Source: Cetorhinus maximus
Lineage: Eukaryota
DNA length: 64,000 nucleotides
Direction: 5' to 3'
NCBI RefSeq assembly: GCF_964194155.1
Contig: NC_135890.1
Location: forward strand, 107,074,001 to 107,138,000
Positions 34 through 51,377 of this stretch are shown in pieces; position 1 is the first letter of the stretch, and each line of letters starts with the position of its first letter. Made by a program: the position numbers and the translations under genes. The notes under the pieces are model-generated. The model had not been told where the DNA came from. It ran no database searches and saw nothing but the letters and a program-made list of their open reading frames with translations.

Positions 34-501
34 TTAACCACCTCGTAGACGTAGCATGAGGAAGATGGTGCTCTCAGGCTGAATATTGTAGTCGGCGAGT
101 GTCAGACCATCCTCCAGCTGTTTCCCCTCGCACACCAGACGCTGCTGACTGGCTGGGACACCCTCCTGCCGTTGTACCCATGCTCTAAAATTCTGAACAG
201 ACTCAGAGGGAAGAACGTCATATGTAGATGTTTTCCCCTTGTCATTCTTCAGGAATATCTGCATGCGCTCCTCGTTCTTGACAATCAGCATGACCTCATG
301 ACTGGGAGAGACATTGTAGTCAGACAGCCTCCTGCTGTCCTGCAGCTCTTCAGTGTTTCCATTTTGCACCAACAGGCGCTGTCGGAAATGGGGCACCTTG
401 GTTCTTTCATATATCATCTTCTTGAGAGCTGACACTTGGATGGAAGGGTCGATATCAAGTTCAATAACCTCACCGGTCATAAACTTCACCCGGAGTCTCA
501 T
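34..501 (-). CDS. ISG15: ISG15-like di-ubiquitin-like protein, paralog A copy 1 (155 aa)
   Basis: Two UBL domains, ISG15-type segment [14 protein letters not shown], ends LRLRGG-TAA, ISRE upstream. Confidence 0.88.
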
Positions 502-513
502 CTTGTCAAATTT

Positions 514-1980
514 CTGTTAAGAAATGAACAAGATATCAGTGACGGAGATGCTGTGTATTGTGTATCAGTCACATAATACATTTTGAACATGCAATGCATT
601 GTCCAGACAATCATAGAATCTAGGGAACTAATGCATTGTGTAATCTGCACCTACTGTACCCCCAACTCAGTCAAACTCCTGTCAGTATTTTATTCCCAAT
701 CGGTGCAATGCTGCACACAAAGCCATGGACTGCTGCAAATACCGAGCAGCCAGCATCTATTGACAGATTAGAGCCTTTTGGATTTGAAATATGAACTCTG
801 TTTCTCTCTCCACAGATGCTGCTAGGTCTGTTGAGTTTTACAAGCATTTTCTGTTTTAATTCTGATTTTCTTCTGTTTGTACATTGGATTTCAGCATCGC
901 TGCCAAGGCTAGTGTTTATTCCACAAAATTAATTGCCCTTGTGAAGGTGGTGGTGAGCTGCCTTCTTAATTTATCTGTTTTGTCTGCTGTGGACCAAGTT
1001 GTAAAGAGGTGTGGAACTCAGTGGTGGTCCTAGGAGAACCCAAAATAAGTTAAGTTAACATTTCAGGTGTAAATACTTTGTGGGAATTGGAAGATATGAA
1101 ATTGATCCCACTCCTCACATGTTTACCGGCTCACCCACATTCCCATATCTGCAACATTTCGATGTCATGTCTGTTTTCCAGTTTGAATAAGGCAGAAACT
1201 GAGTTAGAATTATTTGTGCAACTTATATTCTGAATTTATGTTGGAGTATTGAAGCTATCGGGTATCTGCTGCTCACACAGTTGCAATACTCGGTTTTTGC
1301 CACCAGAGTGACTCAAGTAACGTGTAACATGAGCCGTGAATGAACGGGCTTCACTTGTCGGGAGCGCTGAACATTTAAACTGCCAACAGCAGAGTTCTCT
1401 AAACCAGGAACGATGAAACTGTTCTTCGTTGTGCAGAATTCCATCACAACTTCGTTCGTTTTAGACACTGCACTCATGATGAAATTAGATTTGTCAGGCT
1501 GCCCAAAACCTACATCTGCCCTGGGAATACAGGAATGATTTATCTCACTCACATCTCTCTCACTGTTTAACTTTGGTTATATTCTCTTGCACTGTCGCCA
1601 CATTGAGAGGATATTATTTTATCTTAAATTGACTGTGAGATTCAATATAACCCATTCGAGCTCCTAACATAACTTCACCCTCAGACGAATCTTACTATAT
1701 TGTTTGTAAAAAGCAATGACCCTTGTAATCTTAGTTAATGAATGTTTAATGTATTATTTCGAATATTTGAACAGCCCCCGTTAGAATATCTGAGAACGGG
1801 TGTCACATAAACATTAGATCTGTGTCTCCAACAGGATTGAGTTTTTTAAATTTTCTTTCCATTCTCACCGGGTTTTAGTAATAATAATTTATCAGAAATT
1901 GCATCTGAGATTCAGAACAATGCAATTTCCACACCAGAAACAGAATATTGAAATTGCCCCGAAAGGCAGAATGAACTCAC
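514..1980 (-). other. 5'UTR intron of A1
   Basis: On the minus strand: donor ACT|GTGAGT at 1980 and acceptor TTCATTTCTTAACAG| at 514, 12 nt before the ATG. Inferred exon 1 (~1981-2170) has no ATG. Confidence 0.75.
775..870. repeat. Half-copy of the palindromic Penelope-like repeat in the A intron (also ~22495-22590, ~43565-43665)
   Basis: TTTCTCTCTCCACAGATGCTGC...TGAGTTTT..CAGCATTTTCTG matches the right arm of the 15170-15406 element. Confidence 0.6.
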
Positions 1981-2199
1981 AGTCCTTGCTGGAAGCACAG
2001 GTCCAGGAAAGTTCAGCTGCTGAATAATTTCTGATGCACTTTTTCTGCGCAGTTGGTCCTTTCTGTTTCCCTTCGCACCGACTCTCAGATCTGGACGGAG
2101 TATGTGAATCAAGCTCTTTGCTTCTGCTGCTCTGTATCTTGCTCTGTGCGTCTCTCCGTTAAACAACTCTGTCTGCGCGCGTCTCCGGCTCCCTCCTCC

Positions 2200-2311
2200 T
2201 TTTATTCTCAGACCCGGTTTCCGAACGTCACAGCCCCGCTGTCCTCTGATTGTCGCAAATCCCCTGTTCTGTTATGAAATAAATGTGATCGGAGCTGAAG
2301 TTTCGTTTTCC
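2200..2311 (-). promoter_or_regulatory. A1 promoter: AATAAAA TATA-like box (2200-2206), TGACGT CRE-like site (2225-2230), ISRE AGTTTCGTTTTCC (2299-2311)
   Basis: Exact match to the ISRE consensus AGTTTCNNTTTCC. Motif order is conserved in the B promoter. Confidence 0.8.
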
Positions 2312-2332
2312 GAAAACTTCCCCCCCACCCCC

Positions 2333-3075
2333 ATGGTAGGACCTTAGAAAGTACAGAGGATCAGAGGGACCTTGGTGTACATGTCCATAGATCCCAGAAG
2401 GCAGCAGCACAGGTAGATAAGGTGGTTAAGAAGGCATATGGGATGCTTGCCCTTGTTAGTCGAGGCATGGAATATAAGATCAGGAAGTTTATGTTGGAGC
2501 TGTATAAAACGCTAGTTAGACTACAGCTGGAGTAGTGTGTGCAGTTCTGGTCACCACAGCATAGGAAGGATGTGATTGCACTGGAGAGGGTGCAGAGGAG
2601 ATTCACCAGGATGTTGCCTGGGCTGGAGCGTTTCAGCTATTAAGAGAGACTGCATAGGCTAGGGTTGTTTTCCTTAGAGCAGACAAGACTGAGGGGGGAC
2701 CTGATAGAGGTATCCAAAATTATGAGGGGCATAGATAGGGTAGATAGGGAGAAACCTTTCCCCTTAGCAGAGGTATCAATAACCAGGGGGCATAGATTTA
2801 AGGCAAGTTGCAGGATGTTTAGAGGGGATCTGAGGAAAACCTTTTTCACCCAGAGGGTGGTTGTAATCTGGAACACACTGCCTGAGGGGGTGGTAGAGGT
2901 GGGAACCCTCACAACATTTAAGAAATATTTAGATGGGCACTTGAAATGCCACAGCATACAGGGCTACAGGCCAAGTGCTGGAAAATGCGATGGGAAAAGT
3001 TAGGTGCTTGATGGCCAGAACAGACACGATGGGCTGATGTGCCTGTTTCCGTTCTGTATAACTCTATGACTATCA
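2333..3075 (+). mobile_element. CR1-like LINE 3' fragment (also ~24150-24885, ~45470-46268)
   Basis: Degenerate ORF2 C-terminus (RLRGDLIEVSKIMRG...FFTQRVV) followed by a TATAACTCTATGACT tail. Confidence 0.85.
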
Positions 3076-4089
3076 AGCACTCATTCTAACTCAGACCCTA
3101 TGATGAAAGGCACTTCCTGTGACACCTCAACCATAAGGAAACAGGGAAGGGATTACAATGATATGGCTGGTATAGCACAATGGCATCTCCACATTGGCAC
3201 CAGTGATGTAAATTATATAATTCTTGATTTTGTACAGATTGAGGAGTGGGTACAAAAACTGAATTTGGCCACAAAATGTCCTGTGTCCTTAGCAATGATA
3301 GATAGATAAGTGCTTGATGGCTGGCACAGACACAATGGGCCGAAGGACCTGTCTCTGTGCTGTATAACCACATGACGCTACGACTCTAATACAGTACCGT
3401 ATTTCTTGGGCGGCTGCCTGAGTTGAGTTGGTTTATGTGAGATTTGGGGAGAGTGAGAGAAGGTGAAGGTGAGGTTGATGAGACCTGATTTGAATGGCAG
3501 AGCCAGTTCAAAGGACTAAATCTCTACCCCTTCTGATGTTCTTGCTTGATTTCGCAGTGCACCAATATTGTAAAAAGCTCATCAAATGAAAGATTGCTTC
3601 TATTCTGAACTGATAGTGAGGGTGATTGCAGATTGAAGTACAAATCTAGAGCTAACCCAAAGGGGCAGTGGAATCAGTTCTCCTCTTAAAAATTAAGTGA
3701 GACATTTTGGCTGAGATAATCATCTTAGTCTGATGTAGCATGTAACTGAGCTGGAGAGGCTCTCCATCAAAAGTGTGCCCTCAAAATGGCTGCTGTAATA
3801 CCCTTTCCATGATCTTACTCTGATTTTCTTCCACCTTCTAGAAACAAATTAACTCTTGCAATTAAATGAAGCAATGGAGTGGGGTCTCCATATTTCCCTT
3901 TCTTTGTGCCCGGTTACCATTCCTGAAAATCAGCACCAGTTTACCAGTGGCAGTTCTTAACCGATCAGAGATTGGGAAGGTGAAGAGGAGAAAGGTGCAG
4001 GAGGCCAATCAGGATGAAGATGCTGAGAAATAAGGTGGGTCCAAACACCTCATGAGCATCAAACAGGCGCGAGCACTGATCCTTGCAGC

Positions 4090-5452
4090 ACCCGGCTAGT
4101 TACATCCTGCCAACCAGAAAATGGCCCGTTTATTGCTACTCTCTGTTTTCTGACCATTAACCGATTCTCAGTTCATGTAAAATGTTAGCCCCATTCCCAT
4201 GAGCCCCAATCCTTTGAAATAAACTATTGGGCGGCAGTTTATTGAATGCCTTTGGATAATCCAATTAAAATAAATCCACTGGTTCCTCCTCATCTACCCT
4301 GCTACTCAGAACCTCAACAAACCTCAACAAACTTTAACAAATGTATAGAACACAGTTTCCCTTTCATACACCCATGCTGACTTTGACCAATCAAATTATG
4401 ATTTTATAAGTGCCCTATTATCATGTCCCTAATAACAAATTGTCGCACGTTCCTTTCTGTTGATGTCAGGTTAACTGGCCTATACTCCTTCCTGATACTT
4501 TCTCCCTTCGTTTCTTGAATAGTGGGGTTATGTTTGATCCTCCCAATCCATGAGGAGTGTTTGAGTATCTATGGAATCCTGCAAGACCCAGTGTGCCCAC
4601 TATCTCTGTAGCCAGATCTTTTAAACCCTAGGAAGGCGACGATGGGTCCAGGGAATCTGTTGCCTTTTAGTCCCATGAATTTCTCTCGTACTTTTTTCAG
4701 GATACTATTAGAGTAATCCTGGGGATTTTAATTTTCATAGCGACTGGATAAAATACATCTGCTGTAGTAATGTGGGGGATAAGGTTATAGAATGCAGTCA
4801 AAAATATTTTCTAGATCAGTGTCAGCAATCAGCCACAAGGAGAAGTCCCTAATTCTGGCACTAGATAGGGAACACAATCTTGGGGCCTTCTGGGTGTGGC
4901 TCCAGAGAACAGTATCCATCCCTCTGATTATACTGTCCTCTGCCATTACCACATTCCTTCCCCACAGTTTACTCTCAACATAAATGGCCTCATGTATCAT
5001 GGTGCTGTGGTCAGTTTTCTCATCCACCAGATTTTTTTATCATTCAGACAGGCAGCAGGAAGCCCATGCCTGTTAGATAAGGACAATGGCTGAGGTCCCC
5101 TGCACTGCACGATTGTGCTACGCTGTCTATATTCCTATTTTCTTATCCGCCTTGTGTCTCCTTACTAACCTGACCCGCAGCCACACCCTCCTGTCACTGA
5201 CCACTAATTAGACACTATGCGGCACTGCGTAACCTAAGGAGTGTAACTGCCTCTTGGATGAAGTGTCCAGCTTACAGTCTTCCTCCCTAATGCCCCACAA
5301 TGCCTGCATCTCGAATTGAAGCTCGACAACTCGGAAGTTGAACTTGCTTGAGGTTCAGACACTTACTGTGAATGTGGTTGTCAGCAATTGCAATGCTGTC
5401 CACAAACTCCCACATGCTGCTGTTGTGGCAAAGCACCTGCACTGCCATCACT
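4090..5452 (-). mobile_element. Decayed CR1-like LINE fragments, including an ORF1 esterase-like piece (also in units 2 and 3)
   Basis: ORF 4785-5027 VVMAEDSIIRG...LCSLSSARIRD resembles CR1 ORF1 GDS...CLPGA. 4090-4700 resembles antisense ORF2. Confidence 0.55.
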
Positions 5453-5464
5453 ATCTAACCCAGT

Positions 5465-5599
5465 GTCAGCTGTGCCTCAGTTCATAGCACCCTCGCCTTT
5501 GAATCAGAGGGTTGTGGGTTCATGTCCCACTCCCGGAAACCAAGAACTGTGATTGTACTCGAAAGAGTTGCAATCTGTGACTGTTGATAAACCGAAAGA
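5465..5599 (+). mobile_element. tRNA-derived SINE with 12-bp TSD, unit 1 only
   Basis: Degenerate A box (TGCCTCAGTTCATAGC) and B box (GGTTCATGTCCC). TSD ATCTAACCCAGT at 5453-5464 and 5600-5611. Confidence 0.75.
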
Positions 5600-6370
5600 A
5601 TCTAACCCAGTTTTATTTATTTCATTAATTAACATTTATGCATTCAAACAATTAGCTTAGTTTTTTAACCTTTACGATATAGTTTTAAGTGATTGGTATA
5701 TTGATATTTATCTGTAAATTACCCATTTCCTCCCCATGCTGTGATGTCACTTTGTGAAAGCAACAAAGCCCTGAGTTTACCAGCTCTTCTGGCCATTTAT
5801 GAAGAAGTCATTGGCACCACTCTAACAAAAATCAACTGCTCTGATCTGAGAGCCTCTTGTTGAATCCTTTGGCTGCATTGAGTTTCTGGAATGTCTCAGT
5901 CACCAGGGTGTCCCTGACATTATGCCACACCTCCAGCATTGCATTGCAATGTGAGTGTGGTCTCTCATGATTCACCTTTAGCACTGCATGAGAAACCACC
6001 GTCTCCACTGGCTGCATGAGATGTATGCTCACGAAATATTGATCTGTTAAAGCCTGTACCCTGATATCTTTGCGTTTGGTTCCTTCACCAAGGAAGAGGT
6101 TTTTGTCCCCTCCAGGGAGAGACAATTGTTTCCCTGTCATTTCCTCCCAGTTCTGTCTGCTCCCTGGTGCTCCGTGAATCACTGACTGATAACCTTCCAC
6201 CTCAGTAATTCCCTTCTCTCAAGTAAGTGCATCGGGACAGGTGTTTGAATAAGCAAGTTGTCTCTTGGAAGTTTCCAGTATTCCAAACTGGGATAATTAG
6301 AAAAGCATATTTTCTTACTTATTAAATGTGACCAGTGTGAACTTAATTTTTGCAAAATTGCTGCCTTAGT

Positions 6371-6475
6371 CACAGAATGACAAAATCACACAGTGCAGAA
6401 GAGGCCCTTTGGCCCATTGAGTCTACACCGACATGGGAGAAATGCCCGACCTACCCACCTAATCCCATTTACCAT
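6371..6475 (-). mobile_element. 3' tail of a CR1-partnered SINE/LINE (also in units 2 and 3)
   Basis: CACAGAAT..CAGTGCAGAAGAGGCCCTTTGGCCCA matches the LINE tail at ~18620-18670. Confidence 0.55.
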
Positions 6476-6993
6476 AATTAATACTCTTAGTTGATCGCTC
6501 AGTAAAGAATCAATACAGACATGATTAGCCAATAGTTCTGTGTTGTAAATCTTTATCATTCTCACAAAAACCTGATTGTTTGATATTTTTACCCAAAGCT
6601 GTGATGCTGTGAGAACCATTGAGATTGTCCAGTCTGAGCATGTGCAGACTGAATGTTTTGGTACAATTTGTTCATCGGCTCGCCGGCTGCCTCCGTTCCT
6701 GATCCCATCAGGGCCTAAAATTCCTGCCCGGATTCTCTAACATATCATGTGAAAGGCCACAGAAGATCAACTGGGACAATATAATTAATATAATTAAACA
6801 GTGGAAAATATGGGCTGGTGATCTGGGCTGGTGTGATTCTTCAATATTGTCCATAAGTGTCTCATTCATAGCTGATTCTCCCATCACCACTTGTTAGGGT
6901 AAATGATCATAACCTGGGTTTAAATATGCATCCCGGATGGAATGCAGGGAAAGCCACAGACAATACAAACAGATAGAAACACACATTCCAATT

Positions 6994-6999
6994 TTTATT
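6994..6999 (-). terminator. Poly(A) signal AATAAA of B1 (equivalents ~28662, ~50042)
   Basis: Minus-strand AATAAA followed by a GU-rich tract (TGTGTGTTTCTATCTGTTTGT), ~870 nt after the stop codon. Confidence 0.6.
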
Positions 7000-7862
7000 A
7001 AAATGGACAACTTTACTTTCAAATCACATTGGGTATTTTGGCAAATACAATGTGCAGGCCTGACATCCTCTGCTCTTACACAACACTAAGCACCCAGATT
7101 AAAGCATTCCAATGTTAAACACATACAATTTTCCAAGAACACATTAAGGTTAAAGCAATTACTTGTAGATGACCTTAAGTCATTTTAAAATGAAGCTGGA
7201 AGACACTCATTGTTGATCCTTTGGAATTTTTGGCATGGCCCCTCCTATTCAGTGAAAGAGCTTCGGAATTGCCACATCAGCTAACTAATGGTCCCTGAGA
7301 GTGAGAAGGTGGATTCGTACTGAATGAGAGGCAAGTTTGGAGCTGTGGATCAGGGACTGGATCATTATTGGCCTAAATCTTCAGTAGAATCTTGAAGAGT
7401 AACAGAACATACTTTTGACCAATGATCGGCCAGGATTGATGTGAATCAATGTATCACGAGTCAATGATCAGAATGGAACACGTTGCATTAGCAGTCCCCC
7501 CGATTCCTTCTATATTATTAATTAAGTTGCTGACTCTTGTAAAAATTGTGTCCAATGTCTTGTACCAGCATCTTTTCTCGGGTGAGAATGCAGGAAGGTG
7601 ACCTGCACCCAGGCCTCAGTTGGGATCATTCCCTAGTCAGACATTATCTGTTGAACAAAGTTCCTGTTGTTATGGGAACTGGGGCAGACAGGAATAAGAT
7701 TCAAAAGTATCATGGACAAGTCAGTGACTGTGCAACCTGGGACTCTTACTAACTGCAGCTGAGAAAACAGGAGTATATGAAAAAATTGATCAATTGAGGC
7801 ACTATAAATAATTTACTTCTGTACTAGCTAGAGTTCATGGTATAAACCGCTGCAAGTGCAGG

Positions 7863-8330
7863 TTAACCACCTCGTAGACGGAGCATGAGGAAGATGGTGC
7901 TCTCAGGCTGAATATTGTAGTCGGCGAGTGACCGACCATCCTCCAGCTGTTTCCCCTCGTACACCAGACGCTGCTGACTGGCTGGGACACCCTCCTGTCG
8001 TTGTACTCGTGCTCTAAAATCCTCAACGGACTCAGAGGGACGAACGTCATATGTAGATGTTTTCCCCTTGTCGTTCCTGAGGAAAATCTGCATCCGCTCC
8101 ACGTTCTTGACAATCAGCATGACAGCATCGCTGGGAGAGACATTGTAGTCACACAGCCTCTTGTTGTCCTTCAGCTCCACAGTGCTCCCATTTTGCACCA
8201 CCAGGCGCTGTTGGAAATAGGGCACATTGGCTTTTTTGTATATCAACCTCTTGAGAGCCGAGATTTGGATGGAAGTGTCAACATCAAGTTCAATATCTTC
8301 ACCGGTCAAAAACCTCACCTGGAGTCTCAT
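7863..8330 (-). CDS. ISG15: ISG15-like protein, paralog B copy 1 (155 aa)
   Basis: Two UBL domains, LRLRGG-TAA. N-domain distinct from A. Confidence 0.88.
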
Positions 8331-8342
8331 CTTGTCAAATTG

Positions 8343-9402
8343 CTGTTAAGAGATGAACAGGATGTCAGTGATGGGGACACTTTATATCACGAGTCAATTG
8401 CTAAGAATGAATGAAAGAATTTAACACGCAAGACGCATTGTCCCAGGCACTGGCTGCAAGCGCAGAAGCTGAGGGGAAACTGTTGTGTAAATTTCATCTG
8501 CAATAATAGCAACATCTGGCTTCTTACATGATACCTGAATCGCCGAGACACCAATCTTCACAAACTCCTCCCTTCCAGCCAGACAAAAAGCACCAGATTC
8601 ACATATCTGTTCCCCTGCTTGCATTTGACTTTGTCTTTGCTGCTCTATGCTGACTTGTTAAAATATTCAGAAACCCCCGGGGATCTGCGTACTGAGCTGC
8701 AATGCTAGCATCTGTCTGAAGTAGCCCTCAGTGTGCTGTGTAATGTGGCACAGTCTGAGTTTGGGTTCATGGGGAGATAAGAACATGGGCTTGGAAATTC
8801 TGTGGGTTTCTCTTGATCTTGCACCATAGCTTCAGCAATTCATCAATGGAGTCTAAGAGAATGGTTGTAAATGAAGGAAAATGACTGTAAGTTTCACCTT
8901 CAAATTAAAGGAACCATTTGTATAACTCTCTAAACCAGAAGACAGGGCATCCGCAGTCCAGTAGGAAAAAAAAAGTACCCTATTGTTGAGTAGAATTTTC
9001 TCTTTTGATGCCAGTGGTCTATGAATGGAATCTGCACAGTTATGACAGACCAAGCAGCAGAGAGTTATTCTGTCCAGAAATGCTTCCTCTCAGAATCAGA
9101 CTTACATAATGCATTCTATTGAAAAACAAGAAACTACTTTGCTGATATTAGATAATGAATGGGTAATGCATTACTTCAAATTTCCATCTTTAAAATAGCA
9201 GACAAAGGGGTGGCACATAAACATGTTAAGTTGTTATTGCCTTGTATTGTCTTCAATAACTCACAGGCTATGCTTTTTAAATTATCCTGACCCAGTTCAG
9301 AGAATATTAAGAACTTATTTTAAATGGTGAGTTTCATTCAAAATGACTTATTTTAAAACCCAGAATTAGAATATTGAAATTTCTAAATAAAAGACAGGAT
9401 AC
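8343..9402 (-). other. 5'UTR intron of B1 (donor uncertain, 9402 or 9407)
   Basis: Acceptor CTCTTAACAG| 12 nt before the ATG, as in A. The donor region is homologous to that of A (GCAAAGATT GTCA[C/G]GTATC). Confidence 0.6.
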
Positions 9403-9627
9403 GTGACAATCTTTGCCGGAAGCACAAGTCCAGGTGAATCAGAAGAAATTTGAGCTGCACAATGGGGAGAGATTCACTTCCCTGCACAGTTTGTTTTCTC
9501 TGTGTTTCTCCACACCGGCTCTCCAATCTAGAATAAGGGAATAAAATTCTGTGTGTTTCTTGCTCCGTCTCTTCTGTGTTTCCCACCGTTAAACAAGTGA
9601 GTGAGTGTCTGGCTCCCTCCTCAGTCC

Positions 9628-9882
9628 TTTTATTATTATTGCTGGTTTCTGAACGTCACAGCCTTGTTGCCCTCTAATTGCTTTGAACAAACAAGAGAGA
9701 CCAGAGCTGGTTTCATTTCCCAAAGCCTCCCCTCAGAGTCTGGGAAATTACCTGACAGGAGCAGCAGGAATGCACCTTGCTACAGGTAACAGGTACTGAA
9801 TTCCGAGTTATCTCAGTTTCAGATTCCTCTCTGGTGCCACAGTCATAAACAACAAGAGCAGAATCAGCTGAGCGGTGAGTCA
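9628..9882 (-). promoter_or_regulatory. B1 promoter: TAATAAAA box, TGACGT, proximal ISRE/IRF GGTTTCATTTCC (9709-9720), distal AGTTTCAGATTCC (9815-9827), AP-1 TGAGTCA (9876-9882)
   Basis: Motifs read directly from the sequence. Positionally homologous to the A3 promoter. Confidence 0.7.
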
Positions 9883-10019
9883 GAGGCCTCACTGCCTGTT
9901 TGAAGCTGTGGGCAGGGCTTGAACAATACAATGTATAAAGATACAGTGCATCAGACCAGTCAGTTTAATTATCTAATGAAAAGAAATTGGCCTCAAATTG
10001 CAGGGGTCCTGCTCCACGA

Positions 10020-12440: not shown

Positions 12441-13019
12441 ATGCTGTTAGGTAGAACAAAACCCCTTTCCCTTTCCAATCACAAGGCCAAGGGGTTAATG
12501 TCACTTCGATGTCATGGTGGATACTCAGAAACTGTAAGACTGCTTTAGTGGACAGATCCATCCTCATCTTTGCTACGTTTATGATATCTGAAATCCCTCT
12601 GTGACTATTCTCACATGATCCTTTTTGCTGCTACTGTGGACTCGAGCTTCTATGCCTCCCATATTCCTTTGCTGCCCCAGGTAAGAAGGACAAGGTTTGT
12701 GACATGTAAACCATCTCCACCAATCAATACATTTTGATTGTCTTATTCTAAAAGAAAACTTAATATTTTGTCAAATCCCACGTGTGCACACCCCGGTTGA
12801 ATTACAATTCATCCTCAGACCCTTCCTCTAGTATCGACATGGTGCATCCTGTGTAATTTCAGCCGAGGTAGAGACAGGCTGTTCAGATCAGTGTTGGAAA
12901 TTTTTGTCAAGCTTTGCATTAGCACTGATCCTCCAGCTGTACACCACTCCACTACTCGTGTTCTGATGGGGGTTCTAACCTGTATCTTAACCTCTCCTCC
13001 TCCACCAATGGAAACAGCA

Positions 13020-13136
13020 GCACAGCCATATCACAGCCATATCACAGCCGTAATACAGCCATGCCACAGCCATATCACGGCAATATCGGAGCCATATCAC
13101 AGCCATACCACTGTCATATCACAGCCATATCACAGT
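13020..13136 (+). repeat. 11-bp minisatellite (CACAGCCATAT)n, resuming at ~14767-14805 after a LINE insertion (also in units 2 and 3)
   Basis: About 10 degenerate copies before the LINE and about 3 after it. Confidence 0.8.
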
Positions 13137-14765: not shown

Positions 14766-15169
14766 ACCACAGCCATATCACAGCCATACCACAGCCGTAT
14801 CACAGGCAGACCACATTGCCAGCACCGACAGCCATGAAGGCAAATTGGAGTTATAGTTCTTTAAAAGACTCTGTTGAGCTCCTCACTGTGACATAATCTT
14901 TAGCTCCTCTTGTTTACAACTACGATCACCATCAGGTCCACACGGGATATGTTTGGTCCACAAGATGGGAGTCTCCTTCGCTTGGTCTGTTCCCCGTCTA
15001 GGAATGGTGGGTTCTGATACACACTTTGTCTCAGGGACTACCCTTTTTGCTGACTCTGCTGGGACATCAACCCCCTAAGGAATATATAGTTTCCTGGATG
15101 GAATTTACCTTGCCATTTGGACCGACACAACTGGATATAATTATCAGGTGGGCTCATCAGCATTATTCT

Positions 15170-15406
15170 CACTAAGATAAAAGCAAAATACTGTGTATGC
15201 TGCAACCTGAAACAAAACCAAAAACTGCTGGAGAAACTCAGCAGGCCTGACAGCATCTGTGGAGAGAAAAAGCCAACATTTCGAGTCCAGATGAGTCTTC
15301 ATCTTCAGTTCTGAAGAAGAGTCATCTGGATTCGAAACGTTGGCCCTTTCTCTCCACAGATGCTGTCAGATCTGCTGAGTTTTTCCAGCAGTTTTTGTTT
15401 TTGTAT
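15170..15406. mobile_element. Palindromic (~95-bp arms) Penelope-like/MITE-like insertion with 9-bp TSD CATTATTCT (also 36751-36987, 58135-58371)
   Basis: Arms are reverse complements around CTTCAG/TTCTGAAG. TSD at 15161-15169 and 15407-15415. Confidence 0.75.
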
Positions 15407-16064
15407 CATTATTCTAACGTTGTCTCCTGGGTTGTTTACTCACACATTTTTCTATTCACAACTCTCCCCAATTTGTCTCAAAGTGACAAATGAGAAATGT
15501 CTAAGGGCAGAGTAGTTTCAGACTCTGACATAAGTATTTTCCATTGAAACTCTCTGATTAAACATATTGCATTTCCTTCCTTCATTCATCATACTTATTG
15601 CCTTCGTTCCAACTGTTTGGGTAGCCACCTTTAATCGCTCCATGGTTTTTCCACACGTGTACCCTCCCTGACTCCCCAGGAATCACTTGGCGTTTGTTAA
15701 ATGCGATATCGTGGTCACTAAAGTTGAACCAATCAAAGAAATAGCTTTTCTAACCTGGATTGCCAAAATACACAGGTTGACCTCTTCCAGAATATGGATG
15801 GCTATTAACAGGTGGCTGATCTTTAATGTTTGGGCCCATATCTTCGACTGACCGTCAATCCAGATTTTTCTGAAAAATAAAACAAAATACACCAACCTCT
15901 GTGGGCGAAACTTTTCTTTTGGACACAGGTGAGTAGTTAAGGGTTAACAAAATTGCCTTTCTCTTCTGTGGCCTCTATTAACCCTATCAATTCTGCATAG
16001 GAGTGAATCAGCTGAACCCTCTCCCTTTGAGCGCTGCCTTTGTAACGCATACCTCTGCTGGCAT

Positions 16065-16945: not shown

Positions 16946-16948
16946 CCC

Positions 16949-40000: not shown

Positions 40001-42826
40001 TGGGCAACATCTGCCTCGTAGGTAAAGACAGATACAAAGTACTCATTTAACAGCTCAGCCATGCCTCTTCCCTCGATCTGTAAATGCCCTTTTTGATCCC
40101 TCAGTGGCCCTACTCCTCCTTTTACCACCCTTTTACTCTTGGTGTGTTTATAGAATACTTAGGGATTTCCTTTTAGTTAGCTGCCAGTCTTTTTTCATAA
40201 TCCCTCTTTGCTTCTCATATTTGCTTTTTCACATCCCTTCTGAACCTTCTGTATTCAGCTTGGTTCTCAGTTGTATTTGCTACCCGATACCTGTCGTAAG
40301 CACACTTTTTCTTCTTTAACTTAATTTCTATTTCCTTTGTCATCCAGAGAGCTCTGGAATTGTTTGTCCTACCCTTCCATTTTGAGGGAACATGCCTTGA
40401 CTGTGCACAAACCATCTCCTCTTTGAAGGTAGCCCATTGTTCAGCTCCTGTTTTTCCCACCAACCTTTGGTTCCAGTCCATCTGGTCCAGCTCTGTTCTT
40501 GCCCCATTGAAGTCCGTTCTCTGTCAGTTGATTATTCTTACTCTGGTTTGACCAATGTCATTTTCCACCGTCATCCTAAACCTTATGATACAATGATCAC
40601 TGTTCCTTAAATGTTCCCCCACTGTCACTTGATCTACTTGGCCCACCTCGTTCCCAAGAACGAGGTCTAGCAGTGCCTCCTTTCTTGTTGGACTGGACAC
40701 TTACTGCTGTAGGAAATTCTCCTGAACACAACCTAGGAACGCTTGTCTCTCACTGTCCCTTTCACTACCACTATCCCAGTCTATATACGGGTAACTAAAG
40801 TCCCCCGTTATAACTACTCTACAATGTTTACACCTCTCTGTAATTTCCTTGCAGATTTGTTCCTCTATATCCTTCCCACTAGCTGGTGGTCTGTATATTA
40901 CTCCAAGCAATGTAATTGCACCTTTCTTATTCCTTAGCTCTAGCCAAATCGATTCCGTCCTTGATCCCTCTGACACATCCTCTTTCTCCAGTACTTCATA
41001 GTCTCCTTAACCAAAAATCCTCCTCCTTTGTTCTCTTTCCTATCTTTTCTGAACACCTTCTAATCAGGAATATTTAACACCCAGATCTGCCCTTTCTTAA
41101 GTCAGGTCTCCATTATTGCCACAACATCATAATCCCACAAGACAAGCATTGCTGTAAATCCCTAATTTTATTAATTATGTGCCATGCATTCACATATGTG
41201 CAGTGTAACCCTGATTTAGTCTCCATTGCTTGCTCCTTTAATCTGACACCATCTATTAATTTAGTATTCTCTTTGTCTTTTCTTAATTTTATTAACATGG
41301 AGAAAGGGTAATCCTTTCATTTGTAAATTTAAACAGTATTTGCCATAACTGACACTGCTGTCCCCATACCTGTTGCAGCCTTTGTGTGGACAGGGCACCA
41401 AATCCTCCGTCTTCCCTGTCAGAATACAACAATACTCTGGAAAATCCAAGAATCCCAGAAACACTCCAGAGTACCTTCAAGACACTTTACAAATGCAGAA
41501 GTTCCTCATGTTAGCTTACCTGCAACTTGGGTGTTTGGCCCTTCAAAGAATGCGAGTGCTAGACCCATCTTGTACGTCTGCACCTGATGTTTGCAGGCTG
41601 CTGTATGAATCTGTTATCTGGGCCTGAGTGAACCAAATTCAATATCCCTGGTGTCACATCATGGACTGGGTGACAACAGGACAGCGTCGATTCACAGCTC
41701 ACATGTAGGGGAAACCCTGGGTGTGCTCTTTTACGAATGGAACTCCGTACAGGAAGCAGCCGCAGCCAAATGGTATATGGCATGACTAAAATAAATTCTA
41801 TGCTCTTTGTGTTTGAAGTCCCTTGATTAGGCTCCTTGACATTGTCAGCAGCTGCCTCAATGCACTGAGGCTAATCTCAATCTGGTCCCTAATGAGTCCT
41901 CAGTGTATCAATCAGAGTTATTTCCTTAAAACTCTTGGCTCGGTTAAATCAAAGGAAAATGGTTTCAGATTTTGATCCCTGATGTAACATACATAGATTC
42001 ACGGACAATTCACATTTACAAATTTTCACAAGGCAGAAACAACACAACAGCATTTAGATTTGTATCCAAAGAAACAACTTTATTTTCAAGTAACGTTGCA
42101 CATTTCAATAAAATGAACAGCCCGGGCACATAAATTCTGTTATTACAAAAGACTAAGCACACTGACTAAAGCACTTATATATTGGACATCGACATCTACT
42201 CACATAAAGTAAGGCTAAAGGAATACTTGCAGAACATTTAGCATCATTGTGCATTATATACAGTTATTTTGGGTAAATTTCAGTGCATCACAAAAAGCGT
42301 CCCATTTCTCCATTTCTCATAACAACCACCTTGTGCCACACCCGAGTGGGAATAGAACCGAAAAGTATAATCCTCATGCTGTGAGCGCACGTGCATCAGG
42401 TTAACACTGACACTCACACAACCTATTTCATAGAGGATATCCACAGACAGCAGGCTTGAGGGAGGTTGGGCCTAATCTGAATTTAGGTCCCAAAGGAAAA
42501 TGCTTAGTAATCTTTGGCCTCATGTATAAAATAAAAATATGTTTCCATTCCTTCTTTGAAGGATACCCTCTGCTGCTTTGTCTGACACATTCCGTGTGGG
42601 CTATGAGTGCAGGCAGTGGCCTGCTTCGTAGACAGACACTAATATGTGCATGAACACCCCACTGTTATGAACAAGACAATCGAAGAGTGACAGTCAAAGT
42701 ATCATTTACTTACTAACCGCGATGCTTAAACTCATAGAAATTGCATCAGTGGGAAAAAAACCAACAGATTTTTATCGTAGTTTTTGTGTGATATCTAACA
42801 CTCATTCCATATTGGTGCTGTCTTAG

Positions 42827-43294
42827 TTAACCACCTCGTAGTCGTAGCATGAGGAAGATGGTGCTCTCAGACTGAATATTGTAGTCGGCGAGTGTCAGAC
42901 CATCCTCCAGCTGTTGCCCCTCGCACACCAGACGCTGCTGATTGGCTGGGACACCCTCCTGCCGTTGTACCCGTGCTCTAAAATCCCGAACAGACTCAGA
43001 GGGAAGAACGTCATATGTAGATGTTTTCCCCTTGTCATTCTTCAGGAATATCTGCATGCGCTCCTCGTTCTTGACAATCAGCATGACCTCATGACTGGGA
43101 GAGACATTGTAGTCAGACAGCCTCCTGCTGTCCTGCAGCTCTTCAGTGTTTCCATTTTGCACCACCAGGCGCTGTCGGAAATGGGACACCTTGGTTCTTT
43201 CATGTATCATCTTCTTGAGAGCTGACACTTGGATGGAAGGGTCGATATCAAGTTCTATAACCTCACCGGTCATAAACTTCACCTGGAGTCTCAT
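42827..43294 (-). CDS. ISG15: ISG15-like paralog A copy 3
   Basis: Intact 155-aa ORF ending LRLRGG, with K127Q. Inferred intron 43307-44875. Confidence 0.88.
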
Positions 43295-45193
43295 CTTGTC
43301 AAATTTCTGTTAAGAAATGAACAAGATATCAGTGACGGAGATGCTGTGTATTGTGTATCAGTCACATAATACTATTTTGAACATGCAATACATTGTCCAG
43401 ACAATCATAGCATCTAGGGAACTAATGCATTGTATAATCTGCACCTACTGTACTCCCAACTCAGTCAAACTCCTTTAAGTATTTTATTCTCAATCGGAGC
43501 AATGCTGCACACAAAGCCATGGACTGCTGCAAATACCGAGCAGCCAGCATCTATGGACAGATCAGAGTCTTTTGGACTTGAAATATGAACTCTGTTTCTC
43601 TCTCCACAGACGCTGCTAGGTCTGTTGAGTTTTACCAGCATTTTCTGTTTTAATTCTGATTTTCTTCTGTTTGTACATTGGATTTCAGCATCGCTGTCAA
43701 ATCTAGCGTTTATTCCCCAAAATTAATTGCCCTCGTGAAGGTGGTGGTGAGCTGCCTTCTTAAACCGCTGCAGTGTGTATGTGGTATATGTCCCACAAGA
43801 TGCCTCACTTGCTCAAATACAACTTTGATGTTCAGGGCAGTCACTCTCACTTCTAGAATTTATCTGTTTTGTCACCTTTGGTTCAAGTTGTAAAGAGGTG
43901 TGGAACTCAGTGGTGGTCCAAGGAGAACCCAAAATGAGATGAGTTAACATTTCAGGTGTAAATCCTTTGTGGGAATTGGAAGATATAAAAATGATCCCAT
44001 TCCTCACATGTTTCGCCGGCTCACCCACGTTCCCATATCTGCAACATTTCGATGTCATGTCTGTTTTCCAGTTTGAATGAGGCAGAAACTGAGTTAGAAA
44101 TATTTGTGCAACTTATATTCTGAATTTATGTTGGAGTATTGAAGCTATCGGGCATCTGCTGCGCACACAGTTGCAATACTCGGTTTTGGCCACAAGAGTG
44201 ACTCAAGTAACGTGTAACATGAGCCGTGAATGAATGGGCTTCACTTGTGGGGAGCGCTGAACATTTAAACAGCCAACAGCAGAGTTCTCTAAACCAGGAA
44301 CGATGTAACTGTTCTTCGTTGTGCAGAATTCCATCACAGCTTCGTTCGTTTTAGACACTGCACTCATGATGAAATTAGATTTGTCAGGCTGCCCAAAACC
44401 TACATCTGCCCTGGGAATACAGGAATGATTTATCTCACTCACATCTCTCTCACTGTTTAACTTTGGTTATATTCTCTTGCACTGTCGCCACATTGAGAGG
44501 ATATTATTTTATCTTAAATTGACTGTGAGATTCAATATAACCCATTCGAGCTCCCAACATAAATTCAACCTCAGACGTATCTTACTATATTGTTTTAAAA
44601 AAGCAATGACCCTTGTAATCTTAGTTAATGAATGTTTAATGTATTATTTCGAATATTTGAACAGCCCCCGTTAGAATATCTGAGAACGGGTGTCACATAA
44701 ACATTAGATCTGTGTCTCCAACAGGATTGAGTTTTTCAATGATTTTCTTTCCATTCTCACCGGGTTTTATTAATAATAATAATTTATCAGAATTTGCATC
44801 TGAGATTCAGAACAAAGCAATTTCCACACCAGAAACAGAATATTGAAATTGCCCCGAAAGGCAGAATGAACTCACAGTCCTTGCTGGAAGCACAGGTCCG
44901 GGAAAGTTCAGCTGCTGAATATTTTCTGATGCACTTTTTCTGCGCAGTTGGTCCTTTCTGTTTCCCTTCGCACCGACTCTCAGATCTGGATGGAGTATGT
45001 GAATCAAGCTCTTTGCTTCTGCTGCTCTGTATCTTGCTCTGTGCGTCTCTCCGTTAAACAACTCTGTCTGCGCGCGTCTCCGGCTCCCTCCTCCTTTTAT
45101 TCTCAGACCCGGTTTCCGAACGTCACAGCCCCGCTGTCCTCTGATTGTCGCAAATCCCCTGTTCTGTTATGAAATAAATGTGATCGGAGCTGA

Positions 45194-45323
45194 AGTTTCG
45201 TTTTCCGAAAACATCCTCCCCCCCCCCCCGCCCCAGTGTCTGACAAATGATCTCTCAGTCAGCAGCAGAGCATTCTTGCTGATAACAGGTAATGGCCTCT
45301 GATCTGTTTCGTTTCCCATTTCC
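45194..45323 (-). promoter_or_regulatory. A3 proximal ISRE (45194-45206) and distal ISRE TGTTTCGTTTCCCATTTCC (45305-45323)
   Basis: The distal element reads GGAAATGGGAAACGAAACA on the minus strand (three GAAA cores). Confidence 0.8.
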
Positions 45324-48300
45324 TTCAGTAACACAATGTAGAGCATCTTCAGCCGAAAGTGAGCCTAGAGGATTCGATGCTCTGTTGCCATCGGCCGTTT
45401 GAACAGCTGTTACTCTTAGAAATTTCATCTGGACCCAATGTTTTCTTTGAAAAACGATCTTTATTTTTAGGAGTGTGAGGTGATGCTTTTTGGGAGGACT
45501 AACACGGCAAGGGAATCCACAATGAATGGTAGGACCTTAGACAGTACAGAGGATCAGAGGGACCTTGGTGTACATGTCAATAGATCCCAGAAGGCAGCAG
45601 CTCAGTAGATAAGGTGGTTAAGAAGGCATATGGGATGCTTGCCCTTGTTAGCCGAGGCATGGAACATAAGATTAGGGAGGTTATGTTGGAGTTGTATAAA
45701 ACGCTAGTTAGACTACAGCTGGAGTAGTGTGTGCAGTTCTGGTCACCATCCATATGGGAAGGATGTGATTGCACTGGAGAGGGTGCAGAGGAGATTCACC
45801 AGGATGTTGCCTAGGCTGGAGCATTTCAGCTATTAAGAGAGACTGGATAGGCAAGGGTTGTTTTCCTTAGAGCAGACAAGACTGAGGGGGGACCTGATAG
45901 AGGTATCCAAAATTATGAGGGGCATAGATAGGGTAGATAGGGAGAAACCTTTCCCCTTAGCAGAGGTATCAATAACCAGGGGGTATAGATTTAAGGTAAG
46001 GCGCAGGATGTTTAGAGGGGATCTGAGGGAAACCTTTTTCACCCAGAGGGTGGTTGTAATCTGGAACACACTGCCTGAGGGGGTGGTAGAGGTGGGAACC
46101 CTCACAACATTTAAAAAGTACTTAGATGGGCACTTGAAATTCCACAGCATACAGGGCTACAGGCCAAGTGCTGGAAAATGCGATGGGAAAAGTTAGGTGC
46201 TTGATGGCCAGAACAGACACGATGGGCTGATGTGCCTGTTTCCGTTCTGTATAACTCTATGACTATCAAGCACTCATTCTAACTCAGACCCTATGATGAA
46301 AGGCACTTCCTGTGACACGTCAATATAAGGAAACAGGGAAGGGATTACAGTGATATGGCTGGTATAGCAGGATGGCATCTCCACATTGGCACCAGTGATG
46401 TAAATTATAAAATTCTTGATTTTTTACAGATTGAGGAGTGGGTACAAAAACTGAATTTGGACACACAGTGTCCTGTGTCCCGAGCAGTGATACGTAGATA
46501 AGTGCTTGATGGCTGGCACAGACACGATGGGCCGAAGGGCCTGTTTCTGTGCTGTATAACCACATGACGCTACGACTCTAAGACGGTACAGTATTTCTTG
46601 GGCGGCTGCCTGAGTTGAGTTGGTTTATGTGAGATTTGGGGAGAGTGAGAGAAGGTGAAGGTGAGGTTGATGAGACCTGATTTGAATGGCAGAGCCAGTT
46701 CAAAGGACTAAGCCTCTACTCCTTCTGATGTTCTTGTTTGATTTGACAGTGCAGCAATATTGTAAAAAGCTTGTCAAATGAAAGATTGCTTCTATTCTGA
46801 ACTGATAGTGAGGGTGATTGCAGATTGAACTACAGATCTAGAGCTAACCCAAAGGGGCAGTGGAGTCAGTTCTCCTCTTAAAAATTAAGTTAGACATTTT
46901 GGCTGAGATAATCATCTTAGTCTGATGTAGCATGTAACTGAGCTGGAGAGGCTCTCCATCAAAAGTGTGCCCTCAAAATGGCTGCTGTAATACCCTTTCC
47001 ATGATCTTACTCTGATTTTCTTCCACCTTCTGGAAACAAATTAACTTTTGCAATTAAATGAAGCAAGGGAGTGGGGTCCCCATATTTCCCTTTCTTTGTG
47101 CCCAGTTACCATCCCTGAAAATCAGCACCAGTTTACCAGTGGCAGTTCTTAACCGATCAGAGATTGGGAAGGTGAAGAGGAGAAAGGTGCTGGAGGCCAA
47201 TCAGGATGAAGGTGCCGAGAAGTAAGGTGGGTCCAAACACCTCATGAGCATCAAACAGGTGCGAGCACTGATCCTTGCAGCACCCGGCTAGTTACGTCCT
47301 GCCAACCAGAAAATGGCCTGTTTATTGCTACTCTCTGTTTTCTGACCATTAACCGATTCTCAGTTCATGTAATATATTAGCCCTAATCCCATGAGCCCCA
47401 ATCTTTTGAAATAAGCTCATTGACGGTATTTTATTGAATGCCTTTGGATAATCCAATTAAAATAAATCCACTGGTTCCTCCTCATCTACCCTGCAACTCA
47501 GAACATCAACAAACCTCAACAAACTTTAACAAATGTATAGAACACAGTTTCCCTTTCATACACCCATGTTGACTTTGACCAATCAAATTATGATTTTATA
47601 AGTGCCCTATTATCATGTCCCTAATAACAAATTGTCGCACATTCCTTTCTGTTGATGTCAGGCTAACTGGCCTATACTCCTTCCTGATTCTTTCTTCCTT
47701 CGTTTCTTGAATAGTGGGGTTATGTTTGATCCTCCCAATCCATGAGGAGTGTTTGAGTATCTATGGAATCCTGCAAGACCCAGTGTGCCCACTATCTCTG
47801 TAGCCAGATCTTTTACCCCCTATGAAGGCGGCGATGGGTCCAGGGAATCTGTTGCCTTTTCGTCCCATGAATTTCTCTCGTACTTTTTTCAGGATACTAT
47901 TAGATTAATCCTGGGGATTTTAATTTTCATAGCGACTGGATGAAATAAATCTGCTGTAGTAATGTGGGGGATAAGGTTATAGAATGCAGTCAAAAATATT
48001 TTCTAGATCAGTGTCAGCAACCAGCCACAAGGAGAGGTCCCTAATTCTGGCAGTAGATAGGGAACACAATCTTGGGGACTCCTGGGTGTGGCTCCAGAGA
48101 ACAGTATCCATCCCTCTGATTATACTGTCCTCTGCCATTACCACATTCCTTCCCCACAGCTTGCCCTCAACATAAATGGCCTCATGTATCATGGTTCTGT
48201 GGTCAGTTTTCTCATCCACCAGATTTTTTTATCATTCAGACAGGCAGCAGGAAGCCCATGCCTGTTAGATAAGGACAATGGCTGAGGTCCCCTGCACTGC

Positions 48301-50909
48301 ACGATTGTGCTACGCTGTCTATGTTCCTATTTTCTTATCCGCCTTGTGTCTCCTTACTAACCTGACCCGCAGCCACACCCTCCTGTCCCTGACCACTATT
48401 TAGACACTATGGGGCACTACGTAACCTAAGGAGTGTGACTGCCTCTTGGATGAAGTGTCCAGCTAACAGTCTTCCTCCCTAATGCCCCACAATGCCTGCA
48501 TCTCGGATTGAAGCTCGACAAGTCGGAAGTTGAACTTCCTTGATGTTCAGACACTCACTGTGGATGTGGTTGTCAGCAATTGCAATGCTGTCCACAAACT
48601 CCCACATGCTGCTTTTGTTGCAAAGTACCTGCAATGCCATCACTATCTACCCAGTTTTATTTATTTCATTAATTAACATTTATGCATTTAAACAACTTAG
48701 CTTATTTTGTTAACCTTTACGATATAGCTTTAAGTGATTGGTATATTGATATTTATCTGTAAATTACCCATTTCCTCCCCATTCGGTGATGTCACTTTGT
48801 GAATGCAACAAAGCCCTGAGTTTACCAGCACTTCTGGCCATTTATGAAGCAGTCATTGGCAGCATTCCCAAAAAAAACACAACTGCTTTGATTTGAAAGC
48901 CTCTTGTTGAATCCTTTGGCTGCATTGAGTTTCTGGAATGTCTCAGTCACCAGGGTGTCCCTGACATTATGCCACACCTCCAGCTTTGCATTGCAATGTG
49001 GGTGTGGTCTCTCATGATTCAGCCTTAGCACTGCATGAGAAACCACCGTCTCCACTAGCTGCACGAGATATATGCTCACGAAACAATGATCTGTTAAAGC
49101 CTGTGCCCTGATATCTTTGTGTTTGGTTCCTTCACCAAGGAAGAGGTTTCTGTCCCCTCCAGGGAGAGAAAACTGTTTCCCTGTCATTTCCTCCCAGTTC
49201 TGTCTGCTCCCTGGTGCACCGTGAACCACTGACTGATAAGCTTCCACCTCAGTAATTCCCTTGTCTCAAGTAAGTGCATCGGGACAGGTGTTTGAATAAG
49301 CAAGTTGTCTCTTGGAAGTTTCTAGTATTCCATACTGGAATAATTAGAAAAGCATATTTTCTTAATTATTAAATGTGACCAGTGTGAACTTAATTTTTGT
49401 ACAAATTGCTGCCTTAGTCTCAGAATGACAAAATCACACAGCGCAGAAGAGGCCCTTTGGCCCATTGAGTCTACACCGACATGGGAGAAATGCCCGACCT
49501 ACCCACCTAATCCCATTTACCATAATTAATACTCTTAGTTGATCGCTCAGTAAAGAATCAATACAGACATGATTAGCCAATAGTTCTGTGTTGTAAATCT
49601 TTATCGTTCTCACAAAAACCTGAGTATTTGATATTTTTACCCAAAGCTGTGATGCTGTGAGAACCATTGAGATTGTCCAGTCTGAGCATGTGCAGACTGA
49701 ATGTTTTGGTACAATTTGTTCATCAGCTCGCCGGCTGCCTCCGTTCCTGATCCCATCAGGGCCTAAAAATCCTGCCCAGATTCTCTAACATATCATGTTA
49801 AATGCCACAGAAGATCAACCGGTACAATATAATTAATATAATTAAACAGTGGAAAATATGGGCTGGTGATCTGGGCTGGTGTGATTCTTCAATATTGTCC
49901 ATAGGTGTCTCATTCATAGCTGATTGTCCCATCAACACTTGTTAGGGTAAATGATCATAACCTAGGTTTAAAAATGCATCCCGGTTGGAATGCAGGGAAC
50001 GCCACAGACAATACAAACAGATAGAAACACACATTCCAATTTTTATTAAAATGGACAACTTTACTTTCAAATCACATTGGGTATTTTGGCAAATACAATG
50101 TGCAGGCCTGACATCCTCTGCTCTTACACAACACTAAGCACCCAGATTAAAGCATTCCAATGTTAAACACATACAATTCTCCAAGAACACATTAAGGTTA
50201 AAGCAATTACTTGTAGATGACCTTAAGTCATTTTAAAATGAAGCTGGAAGACACTCATTGTTGATCCTTTGGAATTTTTGGCATGGCCCCTCCTATTCAG
50301 TGAAAGAGCTTTGGAATTGCCACATCAGCTAACTAATGGTCCCTGAGAGTGAGAAGGTGGATTCGTACTGAATGAGAGGCAAGTTTGGAGCTGTGGATCA
50401 GGGACTGGATCATTATTGGCCTAAATCTTCAGTAGAATTTTGAAGAGTAACAGGACATACCTTTGACCAATGATCGGCCAGGATTGATGTGAATCAAAGT
50501 ATCACGAGTCAATGATCAGAATGGAACACGTTGCATTAGCAGTCCCCCCGAATCCTTCTATATTGTTAATTAAGTTGCTGACCCTTGTAAAATTGTGTCC
50601 AATGTTTTGTACCTGCATCTTTCCTCAGGTGAGAATGCAGGAAGGTGACCTGCACCCAGGCCTCAGTTGGTATCATTTCCTAGCCAAACATTATCTGTTG
50701 AATAAACTTCCTGTTGTTATGGGAACTGGGGCAGACAGGAATAAGATTCAAAAGTATCATGGACAAGTCAGTTACTGTGCAACCTGGGACTCTTACCAAC
50801 TGCAGCTGAGAAAACAGGAGTATATGAAAAAATTGATCAATTGAGGCACTATAAATAATTTACTTCTGTAATAGCTAGAGTTCATGGTATAAACCGCTGC
50901 AAGTGCAGG

Positions 50910-51377
50910 TTAACCACCTCGTAGACGGAGCATGAGGAAGATGGTGCTCCCAGGCTGAATATTGTAATCGGCGAGTGTCCGACCATCCTCCAGCTGTTTC
51001 CCCTCGCAAACCAGACGCTGCTGAGTGGCTGGGACACCCTCCTGCCGTTGTACTCGTGCTCTAAAATCCTGAACAGACTCAGAAGGAAGAACGTCATATG
51101 TAGATGTTTTCCCCTTGTCATTCTTCAGGAATATCTGCATCCGCTCCTCGTTCTTGACAATCAGCATGACAGCATCGCTGGGAGAGACATTGTAGTCACA
51201 CAGCCTCTTGTTGTCCTTCAGCTCCACAGTGCTCCCATTTTGCACCACCAGGCGCTGTTGGAAATAGGGCACATTGGCTTTTTTGTATATCATCATCTTG
51301 AGAGCCGAGATTTGGATGGAAGGGTCAACATCAAGTTCAATATCTTCACCGGTCAAAAACCTCACCTGGAGCCTCAT
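50910..51377 (-). CDS. ISG15: ISG15-like paralog B copy 3
   Basis: Intact 155-aa ORF ending LRLRGG. Donor CAG|GTATTC at ~52447. Confidence 0.88.

Follow-up and report, generated by a model that had tools for sequence, protein, structure and literature searches.

ISG15 is an interferon-induced antiviral modifier that exists as a single gene in most vertebrates. It is described as rarely duplicated in passages of PMC13030082, and teleost ISG15 genes have a non-coding first exon according to parts of PMC9680060. Salmon carries two ISG15 genes on chr20 and four tandem genes on chr24 (PMC12234341, in part), and the human gene is located between HES4 and AGRN in the portion of its supplement that covers gene order (PMC12234341 supplement). 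Avian OASL is conjugated through LRLRGG (PMC8764230, in part). Sections of PMC10400998 state that OAS gained ubiquitin-like (UBL) domains before the jawed-vertebrate split and that squamate OAS carries a separately acquired UBL, and these sections do not name ISG15. Here we describe a locus of the basking shark, Cetorhinus maximus. The window, i.e. the whole stretch of 64,000 nt that was analyzed (contig NC_135890.1, hereafter C12; C12:107,074,001-107,138,000), was studied together with the 664 kb around it in a genome of ~4 Gb. A preliminary description had seen an amplified array of ISG15-like genes in a cartilaginous fish, and the host is indeed a cartilaginous fish. The locus is best explained, in our view with good confidence, as a real array of 19 stand-alone di-UBL genes that represent shark ISG15, are likely driven by interferon via the interferon-stimulated response element (ISRE) and are predicted to be conjugated through LRLRGG. 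The filing of the genes under ISG15 is in itself a call that we make with high confidence.

Neither an array of ISG15 genes in a shark nor a linkage of ISG15 to OAS is described in the literature searched, which leaves subscription fish-immunology journals largely uncovered, and this literature did not yield any shark ISG15 either. The RefSeq labels for these genes are polyubiquitin-like or uncharacterized, and 19 shark ISG15 copies have been hidden beneath 'polyubiquitin-like' labels. RefSeq proteins of C. maximus match copies A6, A7 and B10 without a single difference. The locus shows ISG15 and OASL, two interferon-era tandem-UBL proteins, as neighbours in the jawed-vertebrate lineage that branched off first.

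Organization of the array and structure of its genes

The window encodes six intact open reading frames (ORFs) of 155 aa on the minus strand, which alternate between types A and B, end in LRLRGG and specify six different proteins, as the preliminary description had reported. The coding exons are located at 34..501 (A1), 7863..8330 (B1), 21754..22221 (A2), 29531..29998 (B2), 42827..43294 (A3) and 50910..51377 (B3), and each ORF contains two ubiquitin (PF00240) stretches. The tandem organization is likewise borne out: the window holds three A-B units of ~21 kb, which are 94-98% alike and are the first three (34..64000, no strand assigned) of eight units in an array with a unit length of 21.4 kb. 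The next A copy, expected from ~64215, ends exactly at window position 64215. The array ends at C12:107,232,132 and the ISG15/OAS cluster at C12:107,420,650; with three extra B genes past the A-B units, the whole cluster amounts to 19 di-UBL genes (8 A and 11 B).

In 16/19 copies, which encode 13 distinct proteins, the start codon is present and the stop codon follows immediately after LRLRGG. B8 has lost the start codon with the LRLRGG motif present, and loss of the stop codon in B9 and B11 adds 38 C-terminal residues. There are 18 distinct coding sequences among the 19 copies, B3 and B6 being the same in DNA, and beyond the window set the B proteins are identical in two groups (B3=B6=B7 and B4=B5).

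A homologous promoter and non-coding first exon are located 1.1-1.9 kb upstream of the coding exon, and the whole coding sequence resides in exon 2. In A2, a GT-AG intron of 1564 nt in the 5′ untranslated region (5′UTR; 22234..23797, minus strand), whose acceptor is 12 nt before the ATG, separates the coding exon from non-coding exon 1 (23798..24010, minus strand, 5′ end approximate); the corresponding GT-AG 5′UTR intron of B2 spans 1059 nt (30011..31069, minus strand). In sequencing runs of a related shark, taken as RNA-like although their RNA nature is a guess, the intron joint with GT-AG ends was read from the contigs in 4/4 runs from four studies for A and in 2/3 runs for B. This two-exon structure matches the teleost ISG15 layout.

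An ISRE-like motif had been noted for each gene in the window, and every one of the 19 copies in the cluster carries it just upstream of exon 1, as a motif match only. On the minus strand of the window, these motifs lie at 2300..2311 (A1), 9710..9720 (B1), 24117..24128 (A2), 31377..31387 (B2) and 52755..52765 (B3), and the A3 promoter contains two within 45195..45316. One unit yielded five ISRE-like matches compared with 1.33 in 200 Markov shuffles, and the chance expectation is ~0.005 per 150 bp and strand. The promoters also carry a TGACGT element and an AT-rich box. The second, distal ISRE is present in A3-A8 and missing in A1 and A2. At A1 (about 2330) and A2 (window 24128-24150), repeat-like sequence abuts the proximal ISRE, and at that site A3-A8 have ~300 bases with the second ISRE.

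Relationship of the genes to ISG15

Several shark orders have relatives of A and B with 72-94% identity, and a ray has more distant ones, under the label polyubiquitin-like; three-domain versions with a duplicated C-terminal UBL are found in Mobula (P0003) and Mustelus (P0133). Searching with shark OASL retrieved models of coelacanth (P0175, also P0312) and of the snake Candoia (P0204) that join an OAS unit to a di-UBL. The coelacanth di-UBL is 53-55% and the snake di-UBL 44-45% identical to A/B, whereas the OASL tail of the shark itself reaches 30-36%. A tree was built from 22 di-UBLs, from which two marsupial tails and single-UBL tails were left out and which include no FAT10 row. In it, shark A/B group with the tails of coelacanth P0175 and snake P0204 (support 99/97), and both di-ubiquitin and the OASL tails of sharks, ray, lungfish, finch and bat fall outside the A/B group. 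In the approximately unbiased (AU) test, trees that unite shark A/B with the OASL tails of sharks are rejected at p=0.0019, and those that unite them with di-ubiquitin at p=0.022. Thus, the proposed ISG15 lineage finds support in the comparison with OASL tails and ubiquitin by which it was to be checked.

Consistent with this grouping, the best match of the snake tail among two-domain PDB chains is human ISG15 (91 bits), ahead of di-ubiquitin (76.5) and the chicken OASL tail (58). When compared by eye, the C-domains of shark A4 and salmon ISG15.1 agree at 46/76 residues, and 13/76 positions are common to the two and unlike ubiquitin, of which the shark OASL tail has 2/13. An AlphaFold model (pLDDT 86.7, pTM 0.61) superimposes on mouse ISG15 with a template modelling (TM) score of 0.79 and on di-ubiquitin chains with 0.44-0.53. 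PDB searches using the N-domain only or the motif only did not separate ISG15 from ubiquitin, and when ISG15 of bony fish was sought by a region search, all 13 proteins retrieved were shark-like.

The genes could also be read as OASL tails, polyubiquitin or FAT10. The OASL-tail reading is rejected because the window contains no OAS sequence; A and B also have their own promoter and exon 1, with splice joints in the related shark. Polyubiquitin was rejected as the genes are not near-identical 76-aa repeats: they share 45-47% identity with the genome's own di-ubiquitin, lack an internal LRLRGG and have a 3-residue insertion in the N-domain. As for FAT10, no FAT10 chain is among the best 60 PDB matches, and the Ubiquitin D cluster of the Atlas scores 0.93 compared with 0.94 for ISG15. 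The FAT10/UBD gene lies in the major histocompatibility complex (MHC), and the flanks of the shark genes are non-MHC.

The position of the genes was compared with that of ISG15 elsewhere. Synteny with HES4/AGRN, put forward in the preliminary description as a check, does not hold: AGRN and NOC2L are on contig C15, and none of 40 di-UBL matches falls there. TPCN1, IQCD and CFAP73 are human 12q24 genes near OAS1-3. In salmon, these three are found around ISG15.2, and PXMP2 is directly beside ISG15.1 (PMC12234341 supplement, in part); human OAS loci map to 12q24.13 and 12q24.31 (PMC9964502, in part). Mammalian synteny is not defining outside mammals, because salmon ISG15 fails the same test. The synteny of ISG15 stated in a passage of PMC5381560 is at odds with the salmon and human neighbours. 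The PXMP2 neighbour of teleost ISG15 is present at the shark locus, whose left flank contains a P2X gene at 52 kb, POLE at 170 kb and a PXMP2-family gene at 340 kb; the assignment to PXMP2 is based on a Pfam family match beside POLE, and POLE and the P2X gene intervene. The P2X exon matches P2X2 best (54 bits vs 51 for P2X4 and 43 for P2X7), and P2X5 and P2X6 are not among the matches. P2RX7 and P2RX4 neighbour human OASL; an assignment of the shark gene to either was rejected since the exon fits P2X2 better. We therefore use the name P2RX2 largely on the strength of the gene order with POLE and PXMP2, which is the order at human 12q24.33.

Subfamilies A and B and alternative explanations

The 27 fixed differences between A and B all fall in the N-domain, leaving the C-domain without any, and 5/6 shared A/B polymorphisms are in the C-domain (Fisher p=2.5e-5). 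The promoters of A and B are 66% alike, and similarity falls just past the stop codon. Since the C-domain is free of fixed differences and the promoters are dissimilar, domain-limited gene conversion is indicated; the sequence pattern fits conversion that is confined to the coding exon and acts most strongly on the C-domain. The C-terminal domain of ISG15 is the part handled by E1, E2, E3 and protease. The two N-terminal surfaces have predicted isoelectric points of 8.1 and 6.2.

The two subfamilies of the preliminary description persist as separate clades in the white shark as well. Each type pairs with its white-shark counterpart (support 99/99 for A and 100/99 for B), which dates the split before the divergence of the basking and white sharks; the basking-shark A copies form their own group with weak support. 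N-domains of the two species differ at two and four positions within a type and at 22-24 between types. The white-shark model P0122 reads B into A, consistent with an equal gene order. At least seven distinct proteins were found in white shark and at least seven in Scyliorhinus canicula, at least five in S. torazame and at least three in each of two bamboo sharks; these counts are lower bounds, and accessions may be isoforms. Therefore, 'recently expanded' is right for the 21-kb units only and not for A and B, which are both in white shark, with multiple copies also in catsharks and bamboo sharks.

Several observations count against the explanation that we favour, and they are weighed here with the alternatives. 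The most radical of these, that the repeat is an assembly artefact, could draw on unit junctions known from the assembly alone and on one 66-kb block to the right that is 98.96% identical to its copy. But the seven complete units show 1.3-4.2% divergence and 0.6-2.3 gaps per kb, mostly with the greatest similarity between adjacent units and with the edge unit as the most diverged, a pattern of unequal crossing-over and not of false duplication; given also 18 distinct coding sequences in 19 copies, no N in 464 kb and multiple copies in other sharks, an artefact is scarcely credible. It is also very unlikely, if less so, that the genes are not ISG15 orthologues and instead a shark invention that arose independently, out of an OASL tail or polyubiquitin, and came to resemble ISG15 by convergence. 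The tree contains neither mammalian nor teleost ISG15, so the link runs via the snake sequence and the comparison by eye; the model fits the chicken OASL tail nearly equally (TM 0.76), a profile built from 16 shark sequences gives the same 107.5 bits for this tail as for human and mouse ISG15, and a search with a 39-residue motif stretch did not place ISG15 within the best 60 PDB matches. The locus differs from the mammalian ISG15 locus, with the genes in the OAS cluster and not at AGRN, and such an invention would also suit both the identity to di-ubiquitin and the near tie of the Ubiquitin D and ISG15 clusters in the Atlas. Opposed to it are the higher identity to the coelacanth di-UBL than to the shark's own OASL tail, both AU rejections, and the derived residues and PXMP2 neighbour held in common with salmon ISG15.

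The remaining alternatives accept the genes as ISG15. In one of them, which we think a serious possibility though not the probable one, the A/B split and the copy number are functionally meaningless, a by-product of unequal crossing-over with few working copies and drift of the N-domain. The A copies do not differ from neutral expectation (dN/dS 0.71, p=0.24), the 21 replacement and 6 silent fixed A/B changes fit neutrality (p=0.83; p=0.09 against within-class variation), and positive selection on the A/B branch was not detected. The lesions of B8, B9 and B11 and the missing distal ISRE of A1 and A2 point the same way, as does the response to virus of only 2/6 salmon ISG15 copies (PMC12234341, in part). 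In contrast, dN/dS is 0.33 in the B copies (p=0.005), none of 14 genes in units 1-7 is broken compared with 4.6 disabling changes expected from the units' own rates (P ~0.01, rough count), and the N-domain types have been kept between basking and white sharks while conversion would wipe out C-domain differences 100 bases away. In the other alternative, which is rather unlikely, the products work chiefly as free or secreted ISG15, in a cytokine-like role or by binding USP18, and copy number serves dose and not conjugation. Cytokine activity of free ISG15 in fish is mentioned in passages of PMC13030082, and passages of PMC6002735 name HERC3 and HERC4 of elephant shark and no HERC5/6. Three canonical E1 loci were found in the genome, namely UBA1, a diverged UBA1-like paralogue and one unclassified locus. 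The UBA1-like gene on contig C6 (12.15-12.19 Mb) may by its sequence be a UBA7 candidate, but its match to UBA1 (76 bits) exceeds those to mammalian UBA7 (39-42 bits), and no clear UBA7 emerged; a search for E1_UFD, which returned nothing, carries no weight here. Against a mainly free protein stand these three E1 loci, LRLRGG directly before the stop codon in 16/19 copies and nearly all shark relatives seen, and the C-domain being the homogenized one.

If the genes are an ISG15 array as we favour, the following course of events can be proposed. An ancestral ISG15 would have stood head-to-head with OAS and been duplicated into A and B prior to the basking/white shark split. Unequal crossing-over would then have brought the A-B pair to eight copies on one side and multiplied a B-OASL pair on the other, and gene conversion would keep the C-terminal domain common to A and B. 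As for known ISG15, interferon would drive the A/B promoters via ISRE, jointly with the adjacent OAS genes, and the products, mostly without need of processing, would be activated and conjugated through LRLRGG. By this analogy, the shark genes would be a putative 'ISGylation repertoire'. The result would be a high dose of one conjugation handle with two N-terminal surfaces directed at different partners or viral antagonists; that A and B are different N-terminal surfaces on a single handle is speculative. The natural A/B pair, having the same C-domain and different N-domains, makes the role of the ISG15 N-terminal domain directly testable.

Neighbouring genes, origin of the linkage and comparison with known systems

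Directly to the right of the array, eight OAS/OASL genes with the catalytic exon present are encoded on the plus strand. Similarity searches of the window found only UBL and no OAS domain, and all OAS1_C matches are on the other strand, beyond the window. Six genes (type 1) have a tandem-UBL tail exon with LRLRGG and three further residues at the end, 3/6 of these tails being cut to one UBL; the six span C12:107,241,908-107,397,134, and two lack exon 3. Public models fuse neighbouring shark OASL genes into 'OAS2/3-like' proteins. Of the two type 2 genes, the last (C12:107,406,099-107,420,650) ends with a single UBL and a CaaX-like motif. This type also occurs in models of Heterodontus, Mustelus, Pristiophorus, white shark, coelacanth, caecilians and worm lizard, a distribution that suggests an ancient membrane-anchored OAS. 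Human OAS1 p46 is membrane-anchored via CaaX. The later B genes are head-to-head with OAS genes, and at B10 the ISRE motifs of the two promoters are 2.1 kb apart.

In coelacanth (P0175 and P0312) and snake (P0204), the OAS models carry an ISG15-type and not an OASL-type tail. These fusions are either real tail exchange or annotation read-through, and either way ISG15-type sequence adjoins OAS. Because coelacanth and snake models fuse an ISG15-type di-UBL to OAS, the ISG15-OAS linkage is probably ancestral and the locus probably the ancestral home of ISG15. The shark locus would explain the differing neighbours of fish and mammalian ISG15, and it offers a source for the UBL tails on squamate OAS that a passage of PMC10400998 calls 'independently acquired'. 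A wider proposal, which we regard as doubtful, is that ISG15 was born in the OAS locus of the jawed-vertebrate ancestor, in one interferon-driven module head-to-head with OASL and from a common di-UBL ancestor, with tail swaps in coelacanth and squamates and relocation in mammals, and that the lamniform 19-gene, two-surface set, with conversion on the conjugating domain and selection on the N-domains, is the first subfunctionalised ISG15 family.

Each repeat unit also contains relics of mobile elements. The transposon frames around the genes are decayed, as had been stated: a reverse-transcriptase fragment of a long interspersed nuclear element is located at 10810..12339 on the plus strand, with a second copy at 32367-33923 and a third, split one at 53745-55301, and its longest open stretches in units 1-7 are 537, 555, 371, 361, 386, 320 and 371 aa. 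An imperfect inverted repeat of 200 bases, probably a small DNA-transposon relic, is found once per unit (window 15208-15408, 36789-36989 and 58173-58373). The duplicated 66-kb block occupies C12:107,253,498-107,319,680 and 107,349,211-107,415,476 and represents either the most recent duplication within the cluster or a haplotype positioned as a tandem copy. In the right flank, 131/1982 candidate ORFs from 220 kb were compared with Pfam, and the only matches besides transposon domains were to an ANAPC16 ORF and to the final UBL tail. The ANAPC16 match, a single open frame ~40 kb right of the OAS cluster (L084:2422-2739), is possibly a retrocopy. C12 also holds HNF1, PLBD and a polyubiquitin gene.

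Among known systems, teleost ISG15 resembles the shark genes in its two UBLs, free LRLRGG, non-coding first exon, ISRE, PXMP2 neighbour and small tandem duplications, such as the two linked genes of Asian seabass. It differs in having at most six copies compared with 19 in the shark, where two stable subfamilies alternate, and in that OAS is still alongside in the shark, whereas ray-finned fish lost OAS according to a passage of PMC10400998. Mammalian ISG15 has two exons, an ISRE and LRLRGG like the shark genes, and the model (TM up to 0.79) shares its fold and compact domain arrangement. In contrast to the human gene between HES4 and AGRN, the shark genes have AGRN on another contig, most copies are without a removable C-terminal extension, and the ATG is in exon 2. 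The OASL tail is likewise a tandem UBL with an LRLRGG end and an interferon-type promoter, and is encoded in the same cluster in the shark, but A and B have their own promoter and start codon without OAS exons (NTase, OAS1_C), and the shark's real OASL tails form a separate clade at 30-36% identity. Polyubiquitin shares the head-to-tail UBLs and the LRLRGG end; A and B differ from it by their 45-47% identity to di-ubiquitin, the absent internal LRLRGG and the 3-residue N-domain insertion, and the true polyubiquitin loci are elsewhere in the shark genome.

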